Source: a phage
Strand: one strand, 5' to 3'
Assembly (NCBI GenBank): GCA_024682255.1
Contig: GCA_024682255.1_4716.1
Length of the DNA: 64,000 bases
Below the pieces are notes generated by a model. That model was not told the DNA's origin. It did not search any database and saw nothing but the letters and a program-made list of their open reading frames with translations. Shown here one piece after another: positions 251-20,206 of this stretch. Numbering within the stretch: the first letter of the stretch is position 1; every line of letters starts with the position of its first letter. The translations under genes were made by a program, and so were the position numbers.

Positions 251-1357
251 TTAACGAATCTGTGGGACGTTTCCGGTACGGAGCGCCTGGAGGATCGTCA
301 GAAGATCGGAACCCGAGGTTGACGAACTGTTGGATTTTTCCAGTTGCTTGAAGCTTACGGTGGTCCCTTGATCCAAGCTGTGGAAATAGAAGGTCACCAT
401 CTCTTCAGCTTCGTCGATGATGATCAACTGCATTGCGAGGGCTTCAGCCATGACTTTCTGACGTGTGGTATAGTCAGATAAACGACGTCCGATCTTACGC
501 TCGATGGCTTCCTGGTTAGCCTTAGAGATGATATAGGTGGAGGCGATGGCTCCAGAAGAAGGGATCTTTGTGCTCGCTGCAGCTTTTGCGGCATTGATGC
601 GTGCAGCATTAACAGCCTTGCGGATACCCTCTTTATCCATGCGTGAGATTTGTTTGTGTTCGCGAACCAGATCGCTAAGCAGGATCATATCGCTCCAGAA
701 AGACAGCTCACCGGCCATCATGCGATGCCAACGTGCTCGCCAGGTGTTCTGTGGACCACCGATCGCTAAAATCGACGCAAGCACTTCCGCTGGTGAACTT
801 GCGATACGCATGCTGATATTCAGCGGCATTTTCATCGTTGCTTGACCATCGGTCAGCGTCACGGTTAAGAACTTGCCGGTGACCGCGTTCGCATCTTTGT
901 TCAGCAATTCGATCGCAGCGTCGCTGGCTCCAACATCGGCGATATTTTTTTGTTTCCCCTGCAGGTTGAATCCTTTGTCATCAAGGAAAACAAGGCTTTT
1001 GCTATCCGCGCTTTCCAGCGCTAATTTAACAGCCTTATCCATCAGGTTAACGTTACGGTTTGGGTTCACACGACCCAGCGTTTTATCGACACTGATATTA
1101 CCCACCTGCATGATGGTGTTCAACGCCAGTAAATAGAACCCGGTATACATGTTTTCAGCGGTGCGCATGCAGTTGCCTAACGCATTGCGTGCGTCGCTAT
1201 AATACAACTCACGTTCAAAGATCAACGGCGCGATAACGCGTGAAGGTTGTGAGAGTTCAACCAGCGAACCTGGTTGGATAAGTTTATTAACTTCGTAGAC
1301 TTTAGCGATACCGGACGCAACAACGTTAACAGCGTCGGCAATTTCTGATGCTACCAT
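251..1357 (-). CDS. hypothetical protein (368 aa), possibly virion-associated
   Basis: Long ORF with ATG start and AAGGA Shine-Dalgarno about 9 nt upstream; no recognisable motif. Confidence 0.6.
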   Translation of the reverse strand: MVASEIADAVNVVASGIAKVYEVNKLIQPGSLVELSQPSRVIAPLIFERELYYSDARNALGNCMRTAENMYTGFYLLALNTIMQVGNISVDKTLGRVNPNRNVNLMDKAVKLALESADSKSLVFLDDKGFNLQGKQKNIADVGASDAAIELLNKDANAVTGKFLTVTLTDGQATMKMPLNISMRIASSPAEVLASILAIGGPQNTWRARWHRMMAGELSFWSDMILLSDLVREHKQISRMDKEGIRKAVNAARINAAKAAASTKIPSSGAIASTYIISKANQEAIERKIGRRLSDYTTRQKVMAEALAMQLIIIDEAEEMVTFYFHSLDQGTTVSFKQLEKSNSSSTSGSDLLTILQALRTGNVPQIR

Positions 1358-5656: not shown

Positions 5657-8600
5657 TTATCTTACGTTATTGCTATTCTGCTGTTCGCTGAACCAACCAT
5701 ACACCTTGAGATCGGTACCGTATTTCAATGCGATATACGCATTCAGCGCAGCACAGAACAAAGACGCGAATGCCCATATCAGCGAAGGATCAACATCTTC
5801 CGTTACCACCTGGAGAGTATTATCCGGTTCCCATGATGGAGAACTGTCCATGAACGTTGCGTACCATCCCCGCCGTTGTTCTTCGGTGGTAAAGTCGCTA
5901 TGAGGTTCCAACGCTTCTTTTGCCAGACGTCGATATTCGAACATATGCGTTGCTAAAGCCGATGAGTTACCAGATTCGCCTTCATAGTTCGGATCCACCG
6001 CATAACAGAGTTCTGTTGAATCTAACAAAGCAACCGCCTGTGTGATGCTGTCGGCAGTACCTGCACCATAGAGCTCGATAGACCGCGAAAGCTTTTCACA
6101 GAACGTATTTAACGCGGCAGGATTGGACACCTGAAGGTCAAGGCCTAATGTCCACGGATAGTTACTGAACACACCCGTGAACCGCGGCATAACACCCAAC
6201 AGATGCTGACCGATTACGGCACGGTTATAAACAGCCCGGTTATAGACTTGAAACGCAGCCTCCAAGGCTTGGTTATAATGACGACGAAGTTCATCACGTG
6301 AGTTGCGGAATCTGTTTGCCGCAAGACTCGTGGCTGCGACGCTACAAACATCGTAATTGGTGGACGAAAGCACAACCTCGTTAAGATCGAACGCTTCCTG
6401 TTTCAATGTTCCGCTAACAGCCGCCGCTTCGCTGTTCGCTTTATCGACAACAGTACTCAAGGCGTTGATGTAACGTTTAGCTCGGACTTCCAGCCACTGT
6501 GCGATGCCGAGAATATCCACCGCAGCTTTAGCAAGATCGCGTGCATTCACGATTTCGTTCTTCAACGCCCCTAAACCTTTATTCTCAGGCGAAGAGGCTT
6601 GTTGGCGAATCATGCTGTTCAACATGGTAAGCAGATTATCCAACTCATGTCCACTGACCTTGTTACGCGCATCGGTAATCGGCCCTTGCAGGAATTTACG
6701 GCAACCGTCGTTGTATCGAATCAGTTTATCCACATCGATAGATTCGTTCGTGGATTCCTTGAACTGATCCTTCAATTCTTCACGGTAGTCGTGGATTTCA
6801 CTTGCGAGATTGTCGATAGTGATACCATCATGTCCAAGAAGAACTTTATCGAAGTTACCTTTCTCGAATGCCAGAGCAAGACCTTCACGAATCTTAGCGA
6901 GTTTATCTTGATCGAGTTCACGCCCGTTCGATAGCTCTTTCACTTCCGAACTGATTAGTGCCGCAACGTTACCCAGATTGTCGGTAACGCCTTTGAACGC
7001 TCCCGACCAGATCGTTCCTGCTTCAGCGTATTTCGCAATGGTCTGAATACCGACGGTGTGCAACGACGCTAAACGTTTCTTCGTGCCTTCGGTAAGCAGA
7101 GCGTCTTTAGCTCGTGTAAGCTGACTGTTATTGGCTTCCGCCTGCTGAATCGCTGCTTTCGCACTTCCATTACGCCAGCTCTTAACCAGCCAATCGACCA
7201 AACGTTTTAGAATGTTGACGGTGTATTCCATCGTCCGCCGTAACGTTTCCCACGCGCTTTCTGCGGTATAGATGCCGTACCCTTCCATCTTCAACGCTTT
7301 CAAGCTTGTTTGACGTGCCAACCATTCTACCGTTGCAGAACAAACGTTTACTAATGCTTCTAGGTAGTTGTAATAGACGTCTGTTGCAGCCGTTTCGTTG
7401 AGCTTTGAATGCAGATAAAACTGATCGTAAAGTTCGTCGTCATCGCCGAAGGCATCGTAGTTCCACAGCTCAGTATCGCAGCCTGTGCCGCAGAAGACGT
7501 CTGCTGTTGTAAACTCTTTAAGCGCTTTAGCCGCATCATTCGTCAGGAATTTACCTGTTTCAACTACATCATCGACGTTAAGCTTGGGGAGTTCATCGGT
7601 AACTGGCTCTTGCAACATTAACGTGTTGAAGAATGCGCTGTACTTGTATCCGAGCCATTTTGGATAACTGCTTTCAGGTATCGTAGACAACGGCTTGATT
7701 TTCTTGGCTTCAGCCAGCGTGTCTTTTGCAACCTGATATTGGTTTTCCCCAGCCTTGATGCGTCGTAACGCTTTTTCTTCCAACTGCTGGAGTTTGGCAT
7801 GCCGTGCTTGTGCTGGAGCTTCAACGAGTTTTTGTACCGACTGCATTGCTGAAATCGCTTCTTTTAATACGATCATCGGCATACGAACTTTGCCGTCGTC
7901 AAAACTAAGAGCACGAGCGACACGCTTACTTACGACAGGTTTGTCGTGGATATTTCGTTCCACCCACGATTTGTTTGCGTAAGTTTGAGCGATTTGCTGT
8001 TGGATATTTTCAAGGTATTTCCAGCTTTTGGATGCCTTGCTATCCAAAAGCGGATTCGGTCCCTTCTTATCGAAAAGTTTCAGAATCGGATCAAAGAAAC
8101 CTTCCTGTACAAGATCGATACGTGTATATCCGTCAGCCGCTTCGATTTCTTCTTGGGTTTTATCCCAAAGCTCTTCGCTACGGATAGCAGTAGCGGTTTC
8201 AGATACCGACATAACAAGCTCAGCAACAGCTTCAGCGTAAGTCAGTACGGTACGCACACATTGCACTAACATGCGCTGGTAAACGATACGTGCGTTTTGC
8301 AGACGTGCGATAACCGCTAAATATCCGATGTTGTCAAGATTTTCATCGGCTTGAGCGGATTCAACGCGTTCTAACAGTTGTTTAACTAGCGCCGCTGTTT
8401 CTGGGTAATCGTTCACGACGTCACGCATGATTCGTGATGCGAAAACCGCGGTACCTAAAACGGTGAGAAGTGTTTTACCGTCCCATTCTTTCGGTGCTGC
8501 TACCGATTCAGTAGGGATGAGATTTCCCGCTTGGTCGAAGTACGGCATAAGGACATTGATATCAGTCGACGGAACAGCAGTAACTGCGTTGTACTCTTCA

Positions 8601-9262
8601 TCCGCGCCATCGTTGCCAGACGGCTGTAAAGCAAGTGCTTGCTCAAGGATTTTGCGGTCAACGGCATAAAGCGCCGACAGAGCTTGCGTTACCGCAACCA
8701 GATCAACAATCGGTGACCAGAGCTGTGCGAGCTTACCTTCGTATTTCTGTACAGCGATAGCAAGGTCTTCTTTTACGTCTGGATGATCGATCAAACCACC
8801 CAACGTTTCATGGATGGCAGAAAAACGTTCAGAATGTGCCTGAGTCAATGCGGTAAAATCGTCAACGTAAGACGCATTTTCTTCAAGGCGTGTAAGTTCC
8901 TGCTCCAGAAGATCTTTTACCTGCGTGGTAGAGGCGTTTCTCAACTGTTCCCCGATAATCGCGATGGCTTTATCGACAACACGGCAGGCTTCATTGAAAC
9001 CGGTTGTTGAAGGTAACTCGGTCCATAATGCCAGCGGCTTACCTTCCATTGCGTCAGGAAGGGAATATGACAGCATTGTTAGTTGTTGACGTGATACCTG
9101 TTTGTCACGATGCAATGTTTCTTTCAACGCCAGAAGCTCATCAAGACCCACACTGCTAGGGATCGTGGGATGTGATACAGCGTTGATATTTTCTGTCAAT
9201 GACTCAAGAACCAATAAACCATTTTCAGCGGAAGATAACCCTGCTTTAAGGTATTTGTTCAT
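5657..9262 (-). CDS. giant alpha-helical hypothetical protein (1201 aa), likely virion internal/structural
   Basis: Long ORF, ATG start with GGAG 6 nt upstream; A/L/E/K-rich composition suggesting extended helices. Confidence 0.65.
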   Translation of the reverse strand: MNKYLKAGLSSAENGLLVLESLTENINAVSHPTIPSSVGLDELLALKETLHRDKQVSRQQLTMLSYSLPDAMEGKPLALWTELPSTTGFNEACRVVDKAIAIIGEQLRNASTTQVKDLLEQELTRLEENASYVDDFTALTQAHSERFSAIHETLGGLIDHPDVKEDLAIAVQKYEGKLAQLWSPIVDLVAVTQALSALYAVDRKILEQALALQPSGNDGADEEYNAVTAVPSTDINVLMPYFDQAGNLIPTESVAAPKEWDGKTLLTVLGTAVFASRIMRDVVNDYPETAALVKQLLERVESAQADENLDNIGYLAVIARLQNARIVYQRMLVQCVRTVLTYAEAVAELVMSVSETATAIRSEELWDKTQEEIEAADGYTRIDLVQEGFFDPILKLFDKKGPNPLLDSKASKSWKYLENIQQQIAQTYANKSWVERNIHDKPVVSKRVARALSFDDGKVRMPMIVLKEAISAMQSVQKLVEAPAQARHAKLQQLEEKALRRIKAGENQYQVAKDTLAEAKKIKPLSTIPESSYPKWLGYKYSAFFNTLMLQEPVTDELPKLNVDDVVETGKFLTNDAAKALKEFTTADVFCGTGCDTELWNYDAFGDDDELYDQFYLHSKLNETAATDVYYNYLEALVNVCSATVEWLARQTSLKALKMEGYGIYTAESAWETLRRTMEYTVNILKRLVDWLVKSWRNGSAKAAIQQAEANNSQLTRAKDALLTEGTKKRLASLHTVGIQTIAKYAEAGTIWSGAFKGVTDNLGNVAALISSEVKELSNGRELDQDKLAKIREGLALAFEKGNFDKVLLGHDGITIDNLASEIHDYREELKDQFKESTNESIDVDKLIRYNDGCRKFLQGPITDARNKVSGHELDNLLTMLNSMIRQQASSPENKGLGALKNEIVNARDLAKAAVDILGIAQWLEVRAKRYINALSTVVDKANSEAAAVSGTLKQEAFDLNEVVLSSTNYDVCSVAATSLAANRFRNSRDELRRHYNQALEAAFQVYNRAVYNRAVIGQHLLGVMPRFTGVFSNYPWTLGLDLQVSNPAALNTFCEKLSRSIELYGAGTADSITQAVALLDSTELCYAVDPNYEGESGNSSALATHMFEYRRLAKEALEPHSDFTTEEQRRGWYATFMDSSPSWEPDNTLQVVTEDVDPSLIWAFASLFCAALNAYIALKYGTDLKVYGWFSEQQNSNNVR

Positions 9263-9343: not shown

Positions 9344-12139
9344 TTACGCTAATTTACCGAAACCGGCTTTCTGTAGTTTCTCGTTGATCAGTTTTGCTTC
9401 CGCGAAAACATAATCACGATACGCAGTCACTAACCCGTCCACCCGTGAGCGCAAGGCTTCTTCGAAGCTATACCACGCAGCGATTTCACGAATCTGTGCG
9501 TTGATATAATCAACGGTTGAGCGAAGCTCGGTTGCGTTTTCTTGCGGGATGGCTTTCACCTGGCGAGCAACGTCATTTAAACGACGGAACTGTGTTTCGA
9601 TTTCTTTAAACTTACTGTCCGCAAGTTTGCTGAATTCGTCACCGGAACGGGTGAATAACAGATAGCTGTTGCCGTCAAGTGCGGTTGCTAACTGCTGAAG
9701 TACGTTGGTGTCCGGATACACAGGAGTACCGCTTTGCAGTACTTTCTCACCGAATTCCGCGAAGTCCTTCGGTGGTAAGTGTGCAGACGTTGTCAACTCG
9801 TTGAAACGGAAAGTCAGCGAATTATCATACAGCATCCGGTACGCTTCCATACCCTGTTTCATGGTACCGGCCAGGTTAGCCAGACGCGGAGCAATCTCGC
9901 CTTCTTTAGCGCGTTTCTGGTCTTCTAACGCCCCTTCGAGTTCTTTACACTGGTCGTTCAGATACACGATACGATCGGGACGCAGACGACGCATCTCACG
10001 AAGAATAGTATCCAGCTTACCTTCCTGGAAATAACCTAACGTTAAAGACGTACACGCTTGCTGAAGACGATCGAACACCGGTAAGGTCACCATCTCCTTA
10101 CGGATACCATCAACAATCGCAGAAACAGCCGAAAGTTTCTGTTCTGTCGTTAATGGAACATCAGAGACCGACTTGCTGGGCGCACCAACAACGTTACGCA
10201 TTGCGTCGGTATCCTCGGTTTTATCAACCTCTTTACGAACATGCTCATCAGGAACATAAACGTTCGCGTTACGTTTCGCCTGCTTGATGGCGTCGTTGGC
10301 CGCTTTTTCGGTGGCCGCTACGCTATCGGCACGTTTCTTCAAGAGTTCAATAATCCAGAGCAACAGACGACGAATCGCTGTATAGGCGGTCGTGATGATG
10401 ACACCGATAACAGCCATCTTCATGATACCGAACGATTCCATGGTCGGCTCTAACGCCTGGTCCGGCATATACCGTTCACGCAGCTCCAGATAGATCTGCT
10501 CATCTGGTTTGCTGACCTCACCACGATGTGAAGTCCGATAGATGGCTTCGTCAATCTCAACAAGATCTTTGCGTGCCTGGCGATCGGATTCTGTTAAGTA
10601 AGCACAACCGGATACGTCGTCTTCGAAGCTTAAGAATTTGAAAAAGTCGCTGACATCGACGTTGACCTTCTTCGCTTCATTGTCAACGTTAATGAAATCC
10701 GTTTTACGAGACTGCTGTTGAATCTTAATATCCTTTATCGGTTTAAGCGCTTTGTCTTTTAATGCCTGCATGATCTGTTTCCAGCTGGCATCGCGTTCAA
10801 GAACAAGGAAATAGTTCTTGAGTTCGAATGCGCGATAGCGGGCAACAAGTTGTTCTACCTGAACATGAGCGAGTTGTACGTCCATCAGCCAACGCGACAT
10901 TGCCGAGATCAAACGGCTATAAGCAAGCAGCGTCTGATACGTCAGCTTCATGTGTTTCTCGTACAGCTCAATATCGCCGTCTTGAATATCAGCCGTTGGG
11001 TTCATTTCCTTCGTTGCTTTGAAGATTTGTTCGGCTTCATTTAACGTTTGTTCGAATTTGACTTCATTAAACGTGTCAAACGGTTCGGCCAACTCTACCA
11101 TTCGATCGTGAAGTTCACGAACCCAGGCTTCTTTATTGTTGCGAATAGCTGCGTCATCGTGAAGTTCAGTTTGATGTTTCTGTACCCATTCTTCGACGAT
11201 ATCAGCGGCGGCAACAATTCCTGTACCATCGGAAACTAACGGAACAACTCCAGCAAGTACGCCTACACATGCTGGGGTTTTCCAATAATCGTTCAAAGCG
11301 TTTCTGAATTCAACGATGGATTGTACGTTTGGTACTGTGTCCAAAAACGTACTGCCGTTACGGCTCATTGTCGTTACGATATCAGCGAATTCCTTCTGCT
11401 TAGCGGTAACAAAAGGAACCAGGACCATAAGCCATTCAGCAACCGATTTCGCTTTTTCTTTCAGGTTCTTGTCAGCGATTTCTTTAAGGTTTATCGCACC
11501 ACCGTAACCTGCAAGCTCTTTATATACGTCGCTAAGGGTCATCTGTTTATCCAACATTTCTTTGAAACGTGGATAATCAGCACCTAACGCATCGATAATA
11601 TCGTTGATTACGTCATCGGTTGTTGCAATAAACTTCTTCGTATCAACGTTTGAATATTTCCAGACGTACCGTACGGCTTTCTTGATTCCCGCAAAGATAA
11701 ACGCCCAAATACGCTTGATGAGTTCCCAGACTTTCTTCGCACCGTCGACAAACAGTTTAGAGACCTTGGCAACGAATCCTTCCTGTACCAACTCAACGCC
11801 GTTCCGTGATGGGATTTCGGTGAAGAAAGCATCTGGCAGTTGTTTCGGGAATGCGTCACCAAGACGCATACGCAGTTCCGGTACATCAGCACGAGAAATG
11901 CCGCGTGTTACTAACTGTTCGTGAAGACGAACGTTTTCTTCGCCAGAGGTCACGAATTCGTCAACATCGAAGGAGACCATTGCTTCCTGATCTTCGGTGG
12001 TAACGACGCTTGAACCGTCGCTGGTTTGGATGTCCTCGTCAGGGAACGCCATGAGCATACCGTGACGCATTTCAACCACTCCGTAATCGGTTGCTAAACC
12101 GAATTCGTTGTGATCGGGGGTAATAACCGGGATACTCAT
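9344..12139 (-). CDS. large hypothetical protein (931 aa) with one internal hydrophobic segment
   Basis: Long ORF; ATG overlaps the TGA of the upstream gene (ATGA); hydrophobic stretch MKMAVIGVIITTAYTAIRRLLLWII. Confidence 0.65.
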   Translation of the reverse strand: MSIPVITPDHNEFGLATDYGVVEMRHGMLMAFPDEDIQTSDGSSVVTTEDQEAMVSFDVDEFVTSGEENVRLHEQLVTRGISRADVPELRMRLGDAFPKQLPDAFFTEIPSRNGVELVQEGFVAKVSKLFVDGAKKVWELIKRIWAFIFAGIKKAVRYVWKYSNVDTKKFIATTDDVINDIIDALGADYPRFKEMLDKQMTLSDVYKELAGYGGAINLKEIADKNLKEKAKSVAEWLMVLVPFVTAKQKEFADIVTTMSRNGSTFLDTVPNVQSIVEFRNALNDYWKTPACVGVLAGVVPLVSDGTGIVAAADIVEEWVQKHQTELHDDAAIRNNKEAWVRELHDRMVELAEPFDTFNEVKFEQTLNEAEQIFKATKEMNPTADIQDGDIELYEKHMKLTYQTLLAYSRLISAMSRWLMDVQLAHVQVEQLVARYRAFELKNYFLVLERDASWKQIMQALKDKALKPIKDIKIQQQSRKTDFINVDNEAKKVNVDVSDFFKFLSFEDDVSGCAYLTESDRQARKDLVEIDEAIYRTSHRGEVSKPDEQIYLELRERYMPDQALEPTMESFGIMKMAVIGVIITTAYTAIRRLLLWIIELLKKRADSVAATEKAANDAIKQAKRNANVYVPDEHVRKEVDKTEDTDAMRNVVGAPSKSVSDVPLTTEQKLSAVSAIVDGIRKEMVTLPVFDRLQQACTSLTLGYFQEGKLDTILREMRRLRPDRIVYLNDQCKELEGALEDQKRAKEGEIAPRLANLAGTMKQGMEAYRMLYDNSLTFRFNELTTSAHLPPKDFAEFGEKVLQSGTPVYPDTNVLQQLATALDGNSYLLFTRSGDEFSKLADSKFKEIETQFRRLNDVARQVKAIPQENATELRSTVDYINAQIREIAAWYSFEEALRSRVDGLVTAYRDYVFAEAKLINEKLQKAGFGKLA

Positions 12140-12576
12140 GCATTCTCTCCTTGCAGTGCGTTAGCGAAAGCTGTTGCAAGTTGTGCGACCAGTTTCGGGT
12201 CAACGCCTTCGATAACGTCAGGCAGCCCTGCGGTTTCTTGGTCACGAACAGCGGAGGCTAATAACAGCATGGTTTCAGGTGCAGTTGGCTCATGCACCAT
12301 GCGGTAACGCAGGCACCAGAAGTAGCGAGCAACGTCTAACGCATCAGCTAACCCGATAACCAGTACCTTGTTCAGCTTATCCAGCCCTTCACGGATTTTA
12401 GGGAGATGTTCGCGAACGAAAATGCTATCTGCGGTCAGATCTTCTTTTTCAGCGAATACGGGCATGCTGTAACCAGCAATGTAACCAGCGGCAATACTTA
12501 ACGCACGGGTCTGTTGTTCGGCCGGGAAATCACGAACCAGGTCTTTCAGCTGAACGGCGAAATCAGAAATATTCAT
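12136..12576 (-). CDS. hypothetical protein (146 aa)
   Basis: ORF with ATG and AAGGA upstream; stop overlaps start of next gene. Confidence 0.55.
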   Translation of the reverse strand: MNISDFAVQLKDLVRDFPAEQQTRALSIAAGYIAGYSMPVFAEKEDLTADSIFVREHLPKIREGLDKLNKVLVIGLADALDVARYFWCLRYRMVHEPTAPETMLLLASAVRDQETAGLPDVIEGVDPKLVAQLATAFANALQGENA

Positions 12577-12608: not shown

Positions 12609-13919
12609 TTAGGCGATAATGGAATCAAGAGTCGCTGCGGTTTTGAACAGATCGCTGTTCATTGTAGAAGAAAGGGCTTGCTGAATTTCTTCCTGTTTAA
12701 CCGCCTTACGAACCCCAGGACGAAGGGCGATAGTCACCATTTGCATGAACGTACGGTTGTTGTTCATTTCTTTCAGTGTATCATCGATTGTTTTAATCGT
12801 GTCTAGCGTAGTTGAACGGATATCGTTAGGGAGATCGCGATCTTTCAGGCGTATAATCAGATCCTGTTTGATCTTACGGAATCGTTCCATATCGTTATCG
12901 TAAATGTTGTATGTTGGATCTAACCAAACTGCAAGCGCCATAGCGGCAACAAATATTGCCATACCGAGAATATTAACCGAGGTGAAGCTGATTGCAATCA
13001 GAATAGCCACGGCGGCATCTTTAATGAAGGAGAGCCAGAACATCGTTTTGGACTTCATGGAGTCTTTGCTATAATACCGATACATTTTAGCAAGCCCGCT
13101 AACGAGATACTCCCCACCACCATGACGTGTAGCGAACTGATCAGCCATGAATTCGGAAGCAACGTCGGTATATCGTCCAGCGTTGTTTACATTTCGTAAT
13201 TGCATCGCTTTGTTAGATACGTAAACCGTGTACCAGACACTACCATCGTCTGAATCACTGATTTTGTCTACGTCGACGTTGGTATCCAGCGTTTTGTTTA
13301 ACGCTTTCGCCAGTTCGATACGTTTTACCTTATCGGTTGTCCCCAACAGTTCACGCTGCACGGTCATGATTGAGGCTTCGACACGAACCGTTTCCGACAA
13401 TGTTTCGAGGAAAGTAAACGCATGACCGATTTCATGCAGCATTATGGCCGCTTTTTCTTCCGGAAGAAAGGGTTCTGTCGCTGCTAGCAGTTCATACGTG
13501 ATGGCAGAACGAATCTTCAACTCCTCAAAGATACCGTAAACACGACCTTTTTCTAAATCGACGTAACCGACAGGCGTATCTTTAATCTTCTTAAGGAGCG
13601 TAACACCATCAGCACCACGCATCCATAACCGATGATAGTCTGCCAAGATCGTGTTGTTTGTCGAAATATCCGGCGGGTACACGTAGGCATTCATCTGGCC
13701 CATTTTCACGTCGACCGAGAATTCGATGTTCAACCCCGTATAGCGTTTAACCATCTCGGTTAAACGACCGTCCTTGAAAACGTTTAAAACATCTTTTTTA
13801 TCCAGTCCCTGTTTGCTTCTGAAGAACTCGGTCATTTCCTTGAACAAGGAACCATCCTGAAACTTGATGGCTTCCATCGTTAATTCGTCATGACCATACA
13901 CGCGTTGTAGTAATGACAT
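12609..13919 (-). CDS. putative zinc metallopeptidase-like membrane protein (436 aa, HEIGH motif)
   Basis: HExxH motif (IMLHEIGHAFTFLE) with downstream Glu, followed by a long C-terminal hydrophobic segment (FWLSFIKDAAVAILIAISFTSVNILGMAIFVAAMALAVWL). Confidence 0.55.
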   Translation of the reverse strand: MSLLQRVYGHDELTMEAIKFQDGSLFKEMTEFFRSKQGLDKKDVLNVFKDGRLTEMVKRYTGLNIEFSVDVKMGQMNAYVYPPDISTNNTILADYHRLWMRGADGVTLLKKIKDTPVGYVDLEKGRVYGIFEELKIRSAITYELLAATEPFLPEEKAAIMLHEIGHAFTFLETLSETVRVEASIMTVQRELLGTTDKVKRIELAKALNKTLDTNVDVDKISDSDDGSVWYTVYVSNKAMQLRNVNNAGRYTDVASEFMADQFATRHGGGEYLVSGLAKMYRYYSKDSMKSKTMFWLSFIKDAAVAILIAISFTSVNILGMAIFVAAMALAVWLDPTYNIYDNDMERFRKIKQDLIIRLKDRDLPNDIRSTTLDTIKTIDDTLKEMNNNRTFMQMVTIALRPGVRKAVKQEEIQQALSSTMNSDLFKTAATLDSIIA

Positions 13920-13931
13920 TGTACACTCTCT

Positions 13932-13947
13932 AAATTTACGTAAATTT
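13932..13947. promoter_or_regulatory. perfect 16-bp palindrome AAATTTACGTAAATTT in divergent intergenic region
   Basis: Self-complementary 16-mer about 13 nt upstream of the start of the HExxH gene, in the 220-bp divergent region between 13919 and 14141. Confidence 0.4.
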
Positions 13948-14140
13948 AAGGGCTAATGGATCGGCTGGCCGCACCAATCACAATGTGTCCGCTGCTATGC
14001 AACGGCATTCATAGAAATACCTTTTGACGGTAACATCACCCATCACACCCCAAGCAATAAGAGTGGTCGGTTAAAAACAACAGAACGTGGGGATGATATA
14101 GAAAATCACCTTTTAACACTTATTACGAGTTTATCAAGCC

Positions 14141-15640: not shown

Positions 15641-15707
15641 GAAATAAATCGGTTAAGTTTTACCTCCTTTCTCGATAAGTATGATACTAAGCGAGCAAGG
15701 AGTTGAT

Positions 15708-16814
15708 ATGTCGAGTAGTTATGAGTATCCAAAGATTACTGAATGTGTTGTTTCCGAAGAAGGTATCTTCGACCTCGATATGAAGCCGTTACCACTTACC
15801 GTGGAAGATGGAATATCGTACGTCAAACTTGACTGGTACCGTGGTCCCGGTCTGTATGACGCAGGTCTTGTGGTAATGCGTAAACTGCATGCTATCAACA
15901 TATACGAAGATCTGTTAGACGAAGCACATTCGTTGTATATCGATGGGAACCCAGAAAACATCAAACGTGAGAACTTGCTTTATCGTTTCAAGAACGGTAA
16001 GTTGGAACACAAGGGTTATCCGGGCTATTACTACGTCCCTTTCTTTACACACTACGTGATAAACGAGCAAGGCGAAGTGATCAGTCTTTTAACCGGGCAA
16101 AAGAAATCATGGACACGGTCGAAAGGGGATCCGAAACGAAATAAGCGTGCTGGGTACTTATATCAGCGCGTCGTTAATGATAATGGTTTCACAGCCCAAA
16201 TGTTTCAACATCGTGCGATGGGTTACGTGTTCCTGGAATACGGTGCCGACGTGATGACAAAGATCATCAACCACATAAACGGCATCAAATGGGATAATCG
16301 TCCATGCAACATTGAATGGACAACCTATTCTGAGAACAACAAGCATGCGATTGATAGCGGTCTTCGTACAGAAGGCTTACATCCTGTTAAGGTTAAGGAT
16401 TACAACACCGGTGAGGTTAGGGTATTCCCAACAATCGCTGCGTGCTGTGCTGCTTATCCATGCTTGGAACGTAAACGTGTTTGGTATTGGATGACGCGTA
16501 AAACGAAATTCATGCCAGCCTGCAATCTGTATTTCAAAGAAGTCGATGATGATACTCCGTGGCCAGATTGGCAAATCGGACAGCACCGTCGTCTTCAGGA
16601 ATACGATATGGGCCACCCTATCGCAGCTATCGATAAGCAAACCGGTAAACGTTATGTGTTTGCATCAATTGCTCACGCACAACGAGAGACGGGTGTTTCT
16701 AACGTGACTATCACGAAGTACTGTCGTAATAGACTTACAGAAGGTCGTTCTCCATTCATCTTCCGCTATTTTGAAGATGTTAGTTCGATGCCTGTAGGCC
16801 TTAACGACGCTTAA
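15708..16814 (+). CDS. HNH homing endonuclease with C-terminal HTH (NUMOD-like) region
   Basis: HNH motif region INHINGIKWDNRPCNIEWTTYSENNKHA; C-terminal IASIAHAQRETGVSNVTITKYC; ATG at 15708 with AAGGAG 5 nt upstream (track frame starts 15681). Confidence 0.75.
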   Translation: MSSSYEYPKITECVVSEEGIFDLDMKPLPLTVEDGISYVKLDWYRGPGLYDAGLVVMRKLHAINIYEDLLDEAHSLYIDGNPENIKRENLLYRFKNGKLEHKGYPGYYYVPFFTHYVINEQGEVISLLTGQKKSWTRSKGDPKRNKRAGYLYQRVVNDNGFTAQMFQHRAMGYVFLEYGADVMTKIINHINGIKWDNRPCNIEWTTYSENNKHAIDSGLRTEGLHPVKVKDYNTGEVRVFPTIAACCAAYPCLERKRVWYWMTRKTKFMPACNLYFKEVDDDTPWPDWQIGQHRRLQEYDMGHPIAAIDKQTGKRYVFASIAHAQRETGVSNVTITKYCRNRLTEGRSPFIFRYFEDVSSMPVGLNDA

Positions 16815-17514: not shown

Positions 17515-18000
17515 TTATGTGTGTTCGTTGCCAACTTTCACTTTGTAATCAGCATCGGTTAAGAAAATAGACAGGAATCCATGTTCTTTGCAAATCTGAC
17601 TAAGGATGTCAGCAATGATTTCGTTGATCATCGGTTTGTTTGCAAGGGCATAGATGTACCCGGGTGTAAAAGAAAGTGCATGATTGATCATAGGCTCATG
17701 AGAAGCCAAGATAAGGATCACGTGATGCTTCCCATCGTCGGTAACGACCGCTTGCGTAGACACGAAGAAATCAGTGAAGCAGCAGCGATCACAGGCTTTA
17801 GGTATATACAAATCACCCAGAGCTTCGTCACGTGCTTTTACGTGTGTTTCAGGGGTAATGCTGCTAAGTTGATCTTCAGCGAGATCCAAGACATCCTCAA
17901 TCGTTTTAAGAATAGCGTTGCGGAAATCCTCGCGGTAGAATGGGATGATATCACGATCGTTCATGTAATCGCCGGATTCGATAGTAAAGTTGATGTTCAT
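17515..18000 (-). CDS. small hypothetical protein (161 aa)
   Basis: ATG with AGGAG 7 nt upstream; own downstream hairpin. Confidence 0.6.
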   Translation of the reverse strand: MNINFTIESGDYMNDRDIIPFYREDFRNAILKTIEDVLDLAEDQLSSITPETHVKARDEALGDLYIPKACDRCCFTDFFVSTQAVVTDDGKHHVILILASHEPMINHALSFTPGYIYALANKPMINEIIADILSQICKEHGFLSIFLTDADYKVKVGNEHT

Positions 18001-18070
18001 TGAATGCTCCTAGTGGTTATGTCGATTGATTGATGTATTGATTTATGTTTGAAGGTGTTGTTCACCTTCG

Positions 18071-18511
18071 TTAGATATCATCATCCGTGGTGCCGTAGGA
18101 CATATGCTGAATTAATTTTCTCGGCTCGATGAAAATACGACATGTGATAAACACATCGGGATCGTATTGCTCCACGCAACGTCCGAAGGCTTGTTTTGCG
18201 GCTTGACGCACCGATGTTATTTCCTGATCGTTCATCGCATTATCGAATTCGATGTTGATCGTGATTTTATCGGGAAATAAATAGATAAAGTAATCGCCAC
18301 TGATACCACCATCATCAAAGTGACGTTCATTGTAACACTGGACGAGCTTACCTTCACGTTCTTTCTGATACCATCCAAGGATACTATTAAGACCTCTGTC
18401 CACGCATTCGAATGCTTGAGTAATAACATCCTCAACGACGGAGGCTGCCGTGGGACCATTGAATAGACGATCTAAGCGCTTTTTCATCGATTTGTCGGTT
18501 TTCATGTTCAT
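18071..18511 (-). CDS. small hypothetical protein (~146 aa)
   Basis: Internal ATG (MNMK...) with AGGAAAAG upstream preferred over the track start at 18538, which would lie inside a hairpin. Confidence 0.55.
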   Translation of the reverse strand: MNMKTDKSMKKRLDRLFNGPTAASVVEDVITQAFECVDRGLNSILGWYQKEREGKLVQCYNERHFDDGGISGDYFIYLFPDKITINIEFDNAMNDQEITSVRQAAKQAFGRCVEQYDPDVFITCRIFIEPRKLIQHMSYGTTDDDI

Positions 18512-18542
18512 TGTTTCTTTTCCTGTTATAGTCAACATATAG

Positions 18543-18573
18543 CCCTTCCCCGGCCTTGACGGCTAGGGAAGGG
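18543..18573 (-). terminator. hairpin (CCCTTCCC / GGGAAGGG)
   Basis: 8-bp GC stem between genes 18589..18984 and 18071..18511; no strong T-run. Confidence 0.4.
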
Positions 18574-18588
18574 TATGTTTACGTATAT

Positions 18589-18984
18589 TTACTCTTTGAC
18601 GTCAGTTGTCGTTTCGACATGCTTCTCACTACTGACGTACCAGAGCAGGTACGCTGGGAAAAGATTGACCTCTAAGCTAAATGGGATATTGTATTTCTCT
18701 TCCATTTTACAGAGATGTTCTTTAAGTAAATTTCTCGCGTCTCTGTCACCACGAACAGAGTGCCAGTCTAGTTCTTTGTTCTCCTTTACCAGGACCTCTA
18801 CGATGATACGTTGCTCGTGAACCTCGGTTTTCACAGTGAAAAGTAAATCGCTGCTATCAAAACGGGTAAAACGAATGTATGAACCTGGTGTTTTTTCTTG
18901 TTTAATAATATCGATCATGGTAGAAATGCGCGGATGATCGATGTTGTCGTTAACAGCTTTAACGATGGATTCTACAATGCTCAT
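18589..18984 (-). CDS. small hypothetical protein (131 aa)
   Basis: ATG with AAGGA upstream. Confidence 0.6.
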   Translation of the reverse strand: MSIVESIVKAVNDNIDHPRISTMIDIIKQEKTPGSYIRFTRFDSSDLLFTVKTEVHEQRIIVEVLVKENKELDWHSVRGDRDARNLLKEHLCKMEEKYNIPFSLEVNLFPAYLLWYVSSEKHVETTTDVKE

Positions 18985-19141
18985 TTTTTATCCTTAATGT
19001 TATCGATTTAGAAATATTACTTAATTACTGTTTTATTTATCGATGGTTGTTACCCATGATGGGAAAGCCGGATGGAAACAGAGCGTGAACGTAACCTTCG
19101 TATCGTATTTAATCGCTGAACTTTATCTTTGATAGACATGA

Positions 19142-19600
19142 TTACCCCTTAGCTCCTTCTTCGTCTGGAGAGTATTCCATCGTGTAGAATTCATAACCAT
19201 CGGAAAACTTGAGTGTTAATGTAATAGGGAAATCGCACGGCATAGCTGATTTCGTAAATGCGTTATTAGCAACATCAGCCAACCGACGTATAGCATCGGT
19301 CCCGCTGACGCTGAACGGTAGTTGTATGTTGATAAGGATACGACGCTTGTAAACATAGAAAACAACGGTACTGTCGAGATAAACGCTATGGAACGGTATT
19401 GTTGGGATGCGTTCCACAATGGTAAAATACGTCCCGTCATTATCGCTATGCCCCATCGACCAAATATCGGATTTGCGTAGATTTTGTTTGAGGGATTCGA
19501 TACTTCGAGTGACGGTCTCAGCAACAGGCGTGACGTAAGTGTCTCTATGCGAGTCGAAAAGTTCGTTGACGTTAGATTCGAATGAATACATTGTTGCCAT
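19142..19600 (-). CDS. small hypothetical protein (152 aa), paralog of 19667..20161
   Basis: ATG with GAGGT upstream; C-terminus FPITLTLKFSDGYEFYTMEYSPDEE resembles MPVILTINGHDGSGLFEFHYDPDNE of the neighbouring gene. Confidence 0.6.
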   Translation of the reverse strand: MATMYSFESNVNELFDSHRDTYVTPVAETVTRSIESLKQNLRKSDIWSMGHSDNDGTYFTIVERIPTIPFHSVYLDSTVVFYVYKRRILINIQLPFSVSGTDAIRRLADVANNAFTKSAMPCDFPITLTLKFSDGYEFYTMEYSPDEEGAKG

Positions 19601-19626
19601 TTTCTACCTCAATAGTTTAACCGGCA

Positions 19627-19652
19627 CGTGTCCCCACCTAACAAGGGACACG
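19627..19652 (-). terminator. hairpin (CGTGTCCC / GGGACACG)
   Basis: Perfect 8-bp stem, 10-nt loop, between two small genes. Confidence 0.45.
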
Positions 19653-19666
19653 ATATCATCGATTAA

Positions 19667-20161
19667 TTACTCTTCTGTGTTTTCATTGTCAGGATCGTAG
19701 TGGAATTCGAACAGCCCTGAACCGTCGTGCCCGTTGATTGTTAGTATAACGGGCATATCGAATCCTCGGACGCGCGAATGAAAACACTGTGCTAATTTGA
19801 GTTTGGCGTATGCCACTATTTCATTGACGGCAATGCACGACTCACCTGTTATACTCAGTATAACGTCGATACTAACAATGTTGTCGTGCAACGCAAAACG
19901 CCAGCGATCGATACGATTATTATCTTTAGCAGGTGTCTCGTTTACGAGATAGACTTTATCGTCAACCGACAAAGCGGGACTCCAGCAACGTTCGTTTATT
20001 AAATTCGCCTGGAGTTTTAGTATCGTCTGATCAATAATATCCCAACACGCAACCAGCGTGGCGTCAGACACTGAATTGAGAAGGGTGAGTACTTTATCCT
20101 TTATTTTAAGTGCTTCCGCAGGACGCCCGCAAATACCATGCATTTCAACTTTCTTATTCAT
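19667..20161 (-). CDS. small hypothetical protein (~164 aa), paralog of 19142..19600
   Basis: Start set to the first ATG (third codon of the track frame); shared C-terminal motif with the previous gene. Confidence 0.55.
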   Translation of the reverse strand: MNKKVEMHGICGRPAEALKIKDKVLTLLNSVSDATLVACWDIIDQTILKLQANLINERCWSPALSVDDKVYLVNETPAKDNNRIDRWRFALHDNIVSIDVILSITGESCIAVNEIVAYAKLKLAQCFHSRVRGFDMPVILTINGHDGSGLFEFHYDPDNENTEE

Positions 20162-20206
20162 ATTCACTTCTTTCTTAATCTAAATGTTAGTTGGGGGATG
20201 GGATGC

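Follow-up and report, generated by a model that had tools for sequence, protein, structure and literature searches.

A predicted M48-like zinc metallopeptidase of a Goslar-like jumbo phage: probable packaging in the head and an allelic divergence hot spot

The stretch of DNA analysed here (the window) comprises 64,000 nucleotides of the phage contig GCA_024682255.1_4716.1 (GenBank assembly GCA_024682255.1) and belongs to a close relative of Goslar, an Escherichia phage that counts among the nucleus-forming jumbo phages (Chimalliviridae). The gene under study lies at 12609..13919 on the minus strand and encodes a 436-aa protein, of which residues ~17-285 are predicted, from residue conservation, profile matching and structure modelling, to be a zincin domain of divergent M48 type whose catalytic set is complete (H162, H166 and E256 as zinc ligands, E163 as general base). 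The protein is almost certainly the Goslar-group ortholog in the phiKZ gp84/SPN3US gp45/Goslar gp67 family, a core head-internal protein of the phiKZ-like (Chimalliviridae, "group 1") jumbo phages, and in all likelihood it is packaged in the virion and processed at its N-terminus. The catalytic domain, together with a hydrophobic hairpin that follows it, is a hot spot of divergence between phages that are otherwise nearly identical, which is a new observation of this analysis. The overall explanation that is tentatively favoured is that of an M48-like peptidase stored inside the head, which would be ejected to act at a membrane.

The zincin domain and its family

The reading frame (436 aa, ATG start) was confirmed from the sequence, and so was the canonical HExxH motif that the original prediction had singled out in its product. 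The motif lies within LHEIGHAFTFLE at residues 161-172. An HExxH taken alone is weak evidence, but here it acquires meaning because the stricter form HExGH is kept in 194 of 194 homologs of normal length, all of which also carry a Glu...Asp motif 83-99 residues downstream. Within the window it is the only HExxH among the 16,658 residues of the open reading frames (ORFs) of at least 150 aa. The glutamate initially put forward as a possible third ligand, E172, was not borne out in that role: the register-matched ligand is E256, in the sequence EFMAD, which corresponds to E415-FQAD of ZMPSTE24. E172 (H+6) is instead a family-specific Glu, conserved in 187 of the 194 homologs. When 33 diverse members were aligned (mean column identity 30%), the invariant residues proved to be G129, A158, H162, E163, G165, H166, E256, D260, R265, G267 and R346.

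The relationship to M48 peptidases emerges from family-level comparisons. When all PDB sequences were searched with a family profile, human ZMPSTE24 was the best match (E 0.012), the alignment pairing HEIGH with HELGH 335-339 and E256-FMAD with E415-FQAD, where E415 is the third zinc ligand; the window protein searched as a single sequence against the same PDB sequences gave no match. The Pfam family Peptidase_M48 (PF01435) was matched by 20 of 31 members at E<=1, one of which, P0047, was the sole member to exceed the gathering score (24.6 versus 20.3 bits), over profile positions 38-171, that is, from before the HExxH to past the ExxAD. Weak HtpX matches were also obtained in the family with NCBIfam. 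Structure prediction, which had been proposed as a check, gave an AlphaFold2 model (predicted local distance difference test score, pLDDT, 76.3; predicted template modelling score, pTM, 0.77) in which HEIGH falls within a long helix (153-193) and E256 within a second one (252-282), with a five-stranded sheet preceding both. The protein thus presents an HExxH on the active-site helix, an ExxAD-type Glu on a downstream helix and a fold similar to that of solved M48 structures, although this similarity was non-significant in Foldseek. Taken together, the data make an M48-like fold highly probable, and the conservation of the catalytic residues makes it likely that the peptidase is active.

The assignment to the phage family is based on several searches. 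The protein is 95% identical in amino acid sequence to Goslar_00067 (gp67), and shares 25-29% identity with the other orthologs, which are of similar length. It matches phrog_2767 ("unknown function") at E 2.7e-81 over residues 12-432 and SPN3US gp45 at E 9e-26, with homology over the full length; phiKZ gp84 has 413 aa and is labelled "structural head protein" in its record. Homologs were detected by tblastn in 245 phage records, covering Pseudomonas phiKZ-likes and phages of Erwinia, Ralstonia, Serratia, Salmonella, Vibrio and Klebsiella. When 1.84 billion representative proteins were searched with a profile, 3,670 clusters (50% identity) were obtained at E<=1e-3, 1,793 of them at E<=1e-30, and among the best 150 clusters listed nearly all had 410-460 aa and matched end to end. 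Full-length structural matches were likewise found in BFVD (template modelling scores 0.6-0.79). The surroundings of the gene are equally stable, with the same order found in Goslar, PhiEaH1, phiKZ, PCH45 and SPN3US: the peptidase gene points away from a DNA-polymerase subunit gene, and after it come a gp85-like gene, a gp86-like gene and a convergent structural gene of ~970 aa. No paralog of the peptidase was found within the window.

The zincin identity of the family has already been flagged in the literature and in some annotations. Iyer et al. 2021 named AMR59696.1 as a conserved uncharacterized zincin-like metallopeptidase of group 1 jumbo phages, and this entry was verified here to be SEGD1 gp047, which is 100% identical to SPN3US gp45. 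In GenBank the homologs of Serratia phages Moabite and Yaphecito are labelled "M48 family lipoprotein protease", while the structural matches of Bacillus phage AR9 found in the BFVD search bear the UniProt label "Zincin protease". AR9, a phiKZ-related jumbo phage, has two such structurally matching paralogs, of 425 and 323 aa. As AR9 is presumably devoid of a chimallin nucleus, these paralogs suggest that the family may predate the nucleus-forming lineage. No published functional account of phiKZ gp84 (PHIKZ084) was found, including in the papers on antisense oligonucleotide knock-down, on the interactome determined by size-exclusion chromatography and mass spectrometry, and on the structural atlas, the capsid and the core genome. 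What remains of interest is the function of the protein, its likely essentiality and the cassette-like behaviour of its alleles.

Virion presence, N-terminal trimming and the hydrophobic hairpin

The association with the virion that had been proposed from the sequence agrees with what is known of the orthologs, namely the label carried by phiKZ gp84 and the detection of Goslar gp67 in virions. In the latter case, liquid chromatography-tandem mass spectrometry of Goslar particles recovered 19 peptides of gp67, amounting to 46.8% coverage and to an estimated 32/48/76 copies per virion, with the DNA-polymerase subunit gp68 (~0.3 copies) serving as a negative control (bioRxiv 10.64898/2026.04.21.720040). 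The same study assigned gp66 and gp65 to a capsid vertex-binding complex present in 55 copies per virion and recorded gp64 as an unmodelled virion protein of ~110 copies; gp67 is absent from the atomic virion model, and an unassigned density adjoins gp65 in the capsid (bioRxiv 10.64898/2026.04.21.720040).

The N-terminus of the protein carries the signs of a short propeptide. According to our own reading of the published mass spectrometry table, the Goslar gp67 peptide AIKFQDGSLFKEMTEFFR, represented by a single spectrum, starts at A17; it is semi-tryptic, because A17 follows Glu16 and not Lys or Arg. The N-termini of Goslar gp67 and of the window protein are identical. In SPN3US, gp45 is listed among the processed head proteins and loses a propeptide of 20 residues (PMC5694885), and its cleavage site (...A-S-E20|SIGFQD) aligns with T-M-E16|AIKFQD of the window protein. 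E16 is near-invariant, the residue at position P3 being S, A or G in 72% and T in 16% of the 194 homologs, and residues 1-16 are disordered in the AlphaFold2 model (pLDDT <50). The serine prohead protease of phiKZ-type phages has been reported to cut at S/A/G-x-E (phiKZ and SPN3US head-protein papers). The site at E16 and its P3 residues match this specificity, which suggests that a short propeptide of the capsid-targeting type is removed in the prohead. Trimming of ortholog N-termini by 16-20 residues at S/A/G/T-x-E would in turn mean that the protein is in the prohead at maturation. Both lines converge in making packaging and N-terminal processing of the peptidase very probable.

Transposon-insertion sequencing of phiKZ provides a further hint of the weight of this protein. 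PHIKZ084 received 0 insertions in 1242 bp (after trimming), compared with a genome-wide density of one per 42 bp, a figure to be read with the possibility of polar effects in mind (PMC12676376). In the same phage orf85-86 could be deleted (PMC12676376).

The original prediction further described a hydrophobic C-terminal segment of about 40 residues. The stretch does exist, at residues ~292-333, but it is internal rather than C-terminal, being followed by some 100 conserved residues, and its hydrophobicity is marginal. In the AlphaFold2 model it forms a helical hairpin; its sequence has a 32-residue uncharged run and a Kyte-Doolittle 19-residue maximum of 2.31. A hydrophobic stretch occurs at the same place in 33 of 33 aligned members (Kyte-Doolittle 19-residue maximum 1.5-2.9), with 19-57 uncharged residues; the hydrophobicity is conserved, the sequence is not. 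When Hessa-type insertion energies were computed as a simple sum, the window protein showed one borderline transmembrane window (315-333, -0.66). If the number of full spans changed from one member to another, the conserved C-terminal domain would end up on opposite sides of the membrane, and for this reason a monotopic or re-entrant hairpin, or else a buried element of protein-protein contact, appears more plausible than a classical bitopic anchor. The C-terminal domain itself (residues 334-436) found no specific family or fold match in Pfam, profile and Foldseek searches.

Allelic divergence and possible modes of action

The window was compared with two other contigs, L008, a metagenomic Goslar-like contig, and L007. 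In blastn against L008 the alignments run from 18058 to 13817 at 95.7% identity and from 12869 to 6594 at 88.7%, with nothing aligned over 13816..12870, an interval falling within the peptidase gene; the breakpoints in the nucleotide sequence are sharp. At the protein level, identity to L008 is 99.6% for gp68, 99.3% for gp66 and 92.2% for gp65, as against 49.4% for the peptidase; the corresponding values for L007 are 97.4%, 98.6%, 93.6% and 76.8%, the last of these defining a third, intermediate allele. The divergence is distributed unevenly along the protein. Relative to the L008-type allele (P0007, P0015 and P0023), identity is 94-97% in residues 1-34, falls to 30-31% in residues 35-150, is 51-53% in residues 151-290 and 9-11% in the hairpin, and recovers to 65-67% in residues 351-436. 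Every catalytic residue is nevertheless retained in both alleles. At least two alleles thus occur on one genomic backbone, a 436-aa type (P0001-6) and a 439-aa type (P0007-28), and the pattern suggests that a catalytic-plus-hairpin module may be under recombinational exchange or diversifying selection, while the conserved ends of the protein presumably contact phage partners. An explanation of the two alleles by the host was rejected, as both types occur in Salmonella-labelled assemblies and no simple correlation with the host appears.

Two further observations can be made on the architecture of this region. Four of the 19 perfect palindromes of at least 12 bp in the window fall in the peptidase gene and its leader (12832..13948), at 12832, 12988, 13454 and 13931, where ~0.4 would be expected; the count is a post-hoc one. 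The palindrome at 13454, within the coding region, is the 16-mer TTTCTTCCGGAAGAAA. One thought is that the clustering is linked to recombination breakpoints. The 1201-aa ORF at 5657..9262 is also mosaic: in comparison with the gene of Goslar gp64 (930 aa), only its ends align in DNA (~9262..8964 and 7292..5657), the middle ~1.7 kb being unrelated, and versions of 1205 and 1198 aa are found in L007 and L008, respectively.

Regarding the mode of action, M48 enzymes such as Ste24, HtpX, Oma1 and BepA act at or on membranes. For this reason, and because the hydrophobic character of the hairpin is conserved and the variability of the module resembles that of a host interface, ejection followed by action at a vesicle is favoured; exchange of a cassette between near-identical phages would fit a part of the protein that meets the host. 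In this scheme the peptidase would be stored in the capsid and would exit together with the DNA and other ejected proteins, its hairpin would then partition into the inner-membrane-derived membrane surrounding the injected genome (the early phage infection, or EPI, vesicle), and the enzyme could there cut host envelope or membrane proteins, or phage proteins injected with it. That the peptidase is ejected and acts at a membrane is taken as a real but guarded possibility. A more specific version, where a virion-delivered, membrane-inserting M48 protease on the EPI vesicle would assist in building the vesicle, in making it permeable or in opening it at a later time through cleavage of host inner-membrane proteins or co-injected phage proteins, and where the allelic variation would stem from an arms race against envelope or defence factors of the host, is considered improbable. 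A link to Avs5/JADA as a possible sensor was considered and dropped.

Several results weigh against an ejected, membrane-acting M48-like peptidase. The window protein itself, as a single sequence, has no M48 match in Pfam at E<=1, and its model gave no significant match in a Foldseek search of the PDB. Windows of transmembrane grade are missing from 96 of 196 homologs, single in 95 and double in 5, and the hydrophobic segment of the phiKZ type spans ~19 residues. In phiKZ, gp84 is not among the virion proteins recovered with the injected gp93, and the head proteins gp89 and gp162 remain in the capsid. Finally, the operon partners gp66 and gp65 are capsid-bound, gp67 at ~48 copies comes near their 55, and the unassigned density lies beside gp65, all of which fits residence in the capsid.

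These last points are shared by the main rival explanation, according to which the enzyme would be a capsid-resident accessory peptidase of the prohead, either a second maturation enzyme or an oligopeptidase that clears the propeptides released by the serine prohead protease. The conserved gp84-gp85-gp86 operon agrees with such a role, as do the trimmed N-terminus, which places the protein in the prohead at maturation, and the extensive proteolysis of phiKZ head proteins, whose propeptides are cleared; an in-capsid role of the zincin has moreover been suggested in print (Iyer et al. 2021). The explanation is still rather unlikely. The mapped head cleavages of phiKZ and SPN3US follow the S/A/G-x-E specificity of the serine protease gp175/gp245, and no orphan specificity has been reported. 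The same evidence bears on another proposal of the original prediction, a processing protease for the giant proteins encoded nearby, which found no support, since the known head-protein cleavages, including that of the peptidase's own N-terminus, fit the serine enzyme. The dispensability of phiKZ orf85-86, set against the absence of insertions in orf84, points to a role of gp84 that is independent of those partners. In addition, a housekeeping enzyme would not be expected to be the sole hypervariable gene between neighbours that are 99% identical, and it is hard to see what a conserved hydrophobic hairpin would do inside a capsid.

That hairpin could alternatively serve during assembly, by anchoring the protein and the nascent procapsid vertices to the inner membrane until proteolysis frees the capsid. 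Capsids of phiKZ-like phages are reported to assemble at the membrane, and incorporation into the prohead and association with vertex genes would also be accounted for. Such a tether is nevertheless hard to credit: half of the family shows marginal hydrophobicity or none, the protein persists in mature virions, where the 47% peptide coverage extends to the surroundings of the hairpin, and there is no evidence of self-cleavage. It is similarly difficult to regard the family as a non-catalytic structural head protein that merely keeps a zincin scaffold, even if many records label its members "virion structural protein" and nothing more, and even if the M48 matches of the window protein itself are weak. 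Pseudoenzymes normally lose their catalytic residues, while here these are invariant across 194 homologs that have diverged widely (mean column identity about 30%) and kept in both alleles despite 31-52% identity of the domain; this reading is accordingly the most doubtful of those weighed.

The locus and comparison with known systems

The features discussed are collected in Table 1. As had been noted, the peptidase ORF has the same orientation as the ORFs of 146, 931 and 1201 aa that lie downstream, and it is the first of these four co-oriented genes. The stop codon of the gp66-like gene and the start codon of the gp65-like gene overlap at 12136..12139 (ATGA), suggesting translational coupling of the two vertex-complex proteins.

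Table 1. Features of the peptidase gene and its neighbourhood (window coordinates)
Feature	Position	Strand	Remarks
M48-like zinc metallopeptidase gene, 436 aa (predicted)	12609..13919	minus	ATG start, ORF read; ortholog of Goslar gp67, phiKZ gp84, SPN3US gp45; phrog_2767
N-terminal propeptide (capsid-targeting type), codons 1-16	13872..13919	minus	predicted cut after T-M-E16 by prohead protease
Predicted zincin catalytic domain, residues ~17-285	13065..13871	minus	five-stranded sheet, active-site helix 153-193, ligand helix 252-282
HEIGH (H162, E163, G165, H166)	13422..13436	minus	two zinc ligands and general-base Glu (predicted)
EFMAD (E256...D260)	13140..13154	minus	predicted third zinc ligand Glu and supporting Asp, M48-type ExxAD motif
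Marginally hydrophobic helical hairpin, residues 292-333	12921..13046	minus	AlphaFold2 helices 291-313 and 317-332
Helical C-terminal domain, residues 334-436	12612..12920	minus	five helices in model; Y340, R346, K359, L424, F425 invariant or near-invariant
Mosaic/divergence hot spot, codons ~35-350	12870..13816	minus	blastn versus L008
146-aa operon partner	12136..12576	minus	ortholog of Goslar gp66/phiKZ gp85, capsid vertex-binding complex
931-aa operon partner	9344..12139	minus	ortholog of Goslar gp65/phiKZ gp86, capsid vertex-binding complex
1201-aa downstream ORF	5657..9262	minus	longer, mosaic homolog of Goslar gp64
Likely Shine-Dalgarno GAGAG	13926..13930	minus	6 nt before ATG; inside 31-nt block perfectly conserved in L007
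Perfect 18-bp palindrome TAAATTTACGTAAATTTA	13931..13948	.	-12..-29 from ATG

Upstream of the gene, a 16-bp palindrome (AAATTTACGTAAATTT, 13932..13947) had been reported about 13 nt before the start codon and considered a plausible operator. Its position is exact, but it is the core of a longer, perfect 18-mer that ends 12 nt, not 13, before the ATG. A function as operator for a dimeric regulator, whether of the late operon or of the divergent DNA-polymerase gene, could draw on this closeness to the start codon and on the location of the palindrome inside a 31-nt block that is unchanged in L007, whose intergenic region otherwise shows substitutions and indels. The same block, however, also holds the ribosome-binding site, and the palindrome is identical in Goslar, L007 and L008, which is uninformative because their intergenic regions are almost identical throughout. 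Statistically the element is not unusual: the window contains 3 perfect palindromes of at least 16 bp where 1.24 are expected, and 73% of Markov-shuffled windows hold at least one. A single exact copy was found in the window, a search allowing mismatches likewise gave no sign of function, and the half-site AAATTTAC is not enriched (7 occurrences versus 4.0 expected). No such palindrome precedes the orthologs in PhiEaH1, phiKZ, PCH45 and SPN3US, no partner regulator accompanies the element, a sigma-70 scan of the vicinity yielded 0 sites, and the RNA hairpin it could form reaches just -2 kcal/mol (z = -0.85, not significant). An operator role is consequently very unlikely.

A different element of the intergenic region is the block AAGGTATTTCTATGAATGCCGTTGCA (13995..14025, in minus-strand sense), which contains TATG and is retained in L007 although 37 nt are deleted next to it; stretches with TATG are likewise found ahead of the phiKZ, PCH45 and SPN3US orthologs. 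The late promoters of phiKZ are centred on TATG. The block may be a late promoter, in which case the palindrome would lie in the 5' untranslated region.

On the other side of the intergenic region, a 377-aa HNH/NUMOD1 homing-endonuclease-like gene (15681..16814) adjoins the gene of the DNA-polymerase exonuclease subunit. Its product is 37% identical to that of the Goslar gene at the same position versus 96% to those of L007 and L008, which indicates, as far as the comparison goes, a different allele at a conserved insertion site. Further away, at 17515..20167 on the minus strand, five small ORFs of 131-166 aa stand in tandem; weak paralogy (blastp E 1e-6) links at least the two at 19142..19600 and 19667..20167, the others match marginally, and the array looks like a diverged small-gene family.

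The importance of the peptidase lies in its conservation across the sampled phiKZ-like relatives and in the intolerance of the phiKZ copy to transposon insertion, which make it one of the rare virion components of nucleus-forming jumbo phages that are apparently essential and for which an enzymatic activity is clearly predicted. The genome of these phages is injected into a membrane vesicle, and a metalloprotease packaged in the virion and bearing a membrane-seeking hairpin is a candidate player at that stage. If it did act at the vesicle, it would be the first phage-injected membrane protease and would give a handle on the vesicle stage; if it worked in the capsid instead, it would be a second protease in the maturation of giant-phage heads. 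The catalytic residues H162, E163, H166 and E256, the mapped N-terminal site and the exchangeable alleles offer concrete designs for mutants and allele swaps.

Compared with known systems, the protein stands closest to phiKZ gp84, SPN3US gp45 and Goslar gp67, with which it shares full-length homology, length, gene order and the aligned Glu at the trimming site, the status of head protein having been shown in the orthologs. It is a member of this family and differs from the 439-aa allele of near-identical Goslar-like phages. With the M48 peptidases (ZMPSTE24/Ste24, HtpX, Oma1, BepA, LoiP; PF01435) it has in common the HExxH helix, the Glu of ExxAD on a later helix and a hydrophobic segment, although it is very divergent and lies below detection by Pfam. 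The multi-spanning membrane chamber of Ste24 and the transmembrane pairs flanking the motif in HtpX are absent; the window protein has instead one short hairpin after the catalytic domain, a family-specific helical C-terminal domain and the conserved Glu E172, and the phage family, in contrast to M48 enzymes, is packaged in a virus particle.

The prohead protease (phiKZ gp175/SPN3US gp245; MEROPS S80, T4 gp21-like) is likewise a protease found in the heads of these phages and connected with head proteolysis, but it belongs to the serine proteases, cuts at S/A/G-x-E and has a fold unrelated to that of the window peptidase, which it most likely trims. Domains with an HExxH that reach the recipient cell from a capsid or through a conjugation apparatus are known from the ArdC-like and polyvalent-protein metallopeptidases (MPTases) and from the C1 domain of the N4 virion RNA polymerase, and have been proposed to cut host or co-delivered proteins. 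They belong to other zincin subfamilies, with one weak MPTase-PolyVal match among 31 members of the present family, and these zincins are usually domains of giant multidomain proteins that have no hydrophobic hairpin; for the window peptidase delivery is a proposal. A last parallel is offered by the membrane-active ejection proteins, among them gp14-16 of T7 and gp7, gp16 and gp20 of P22. SPN3US gp47, which has a predicted transmembrane helix, is a further example. All are head-internal, carry hydrophobic segments, are soluble in the capsid and are presumed to enter host membranes on ejection. None of these proteins is a peptidase, and membrane insertion of the window protein is a proposal.

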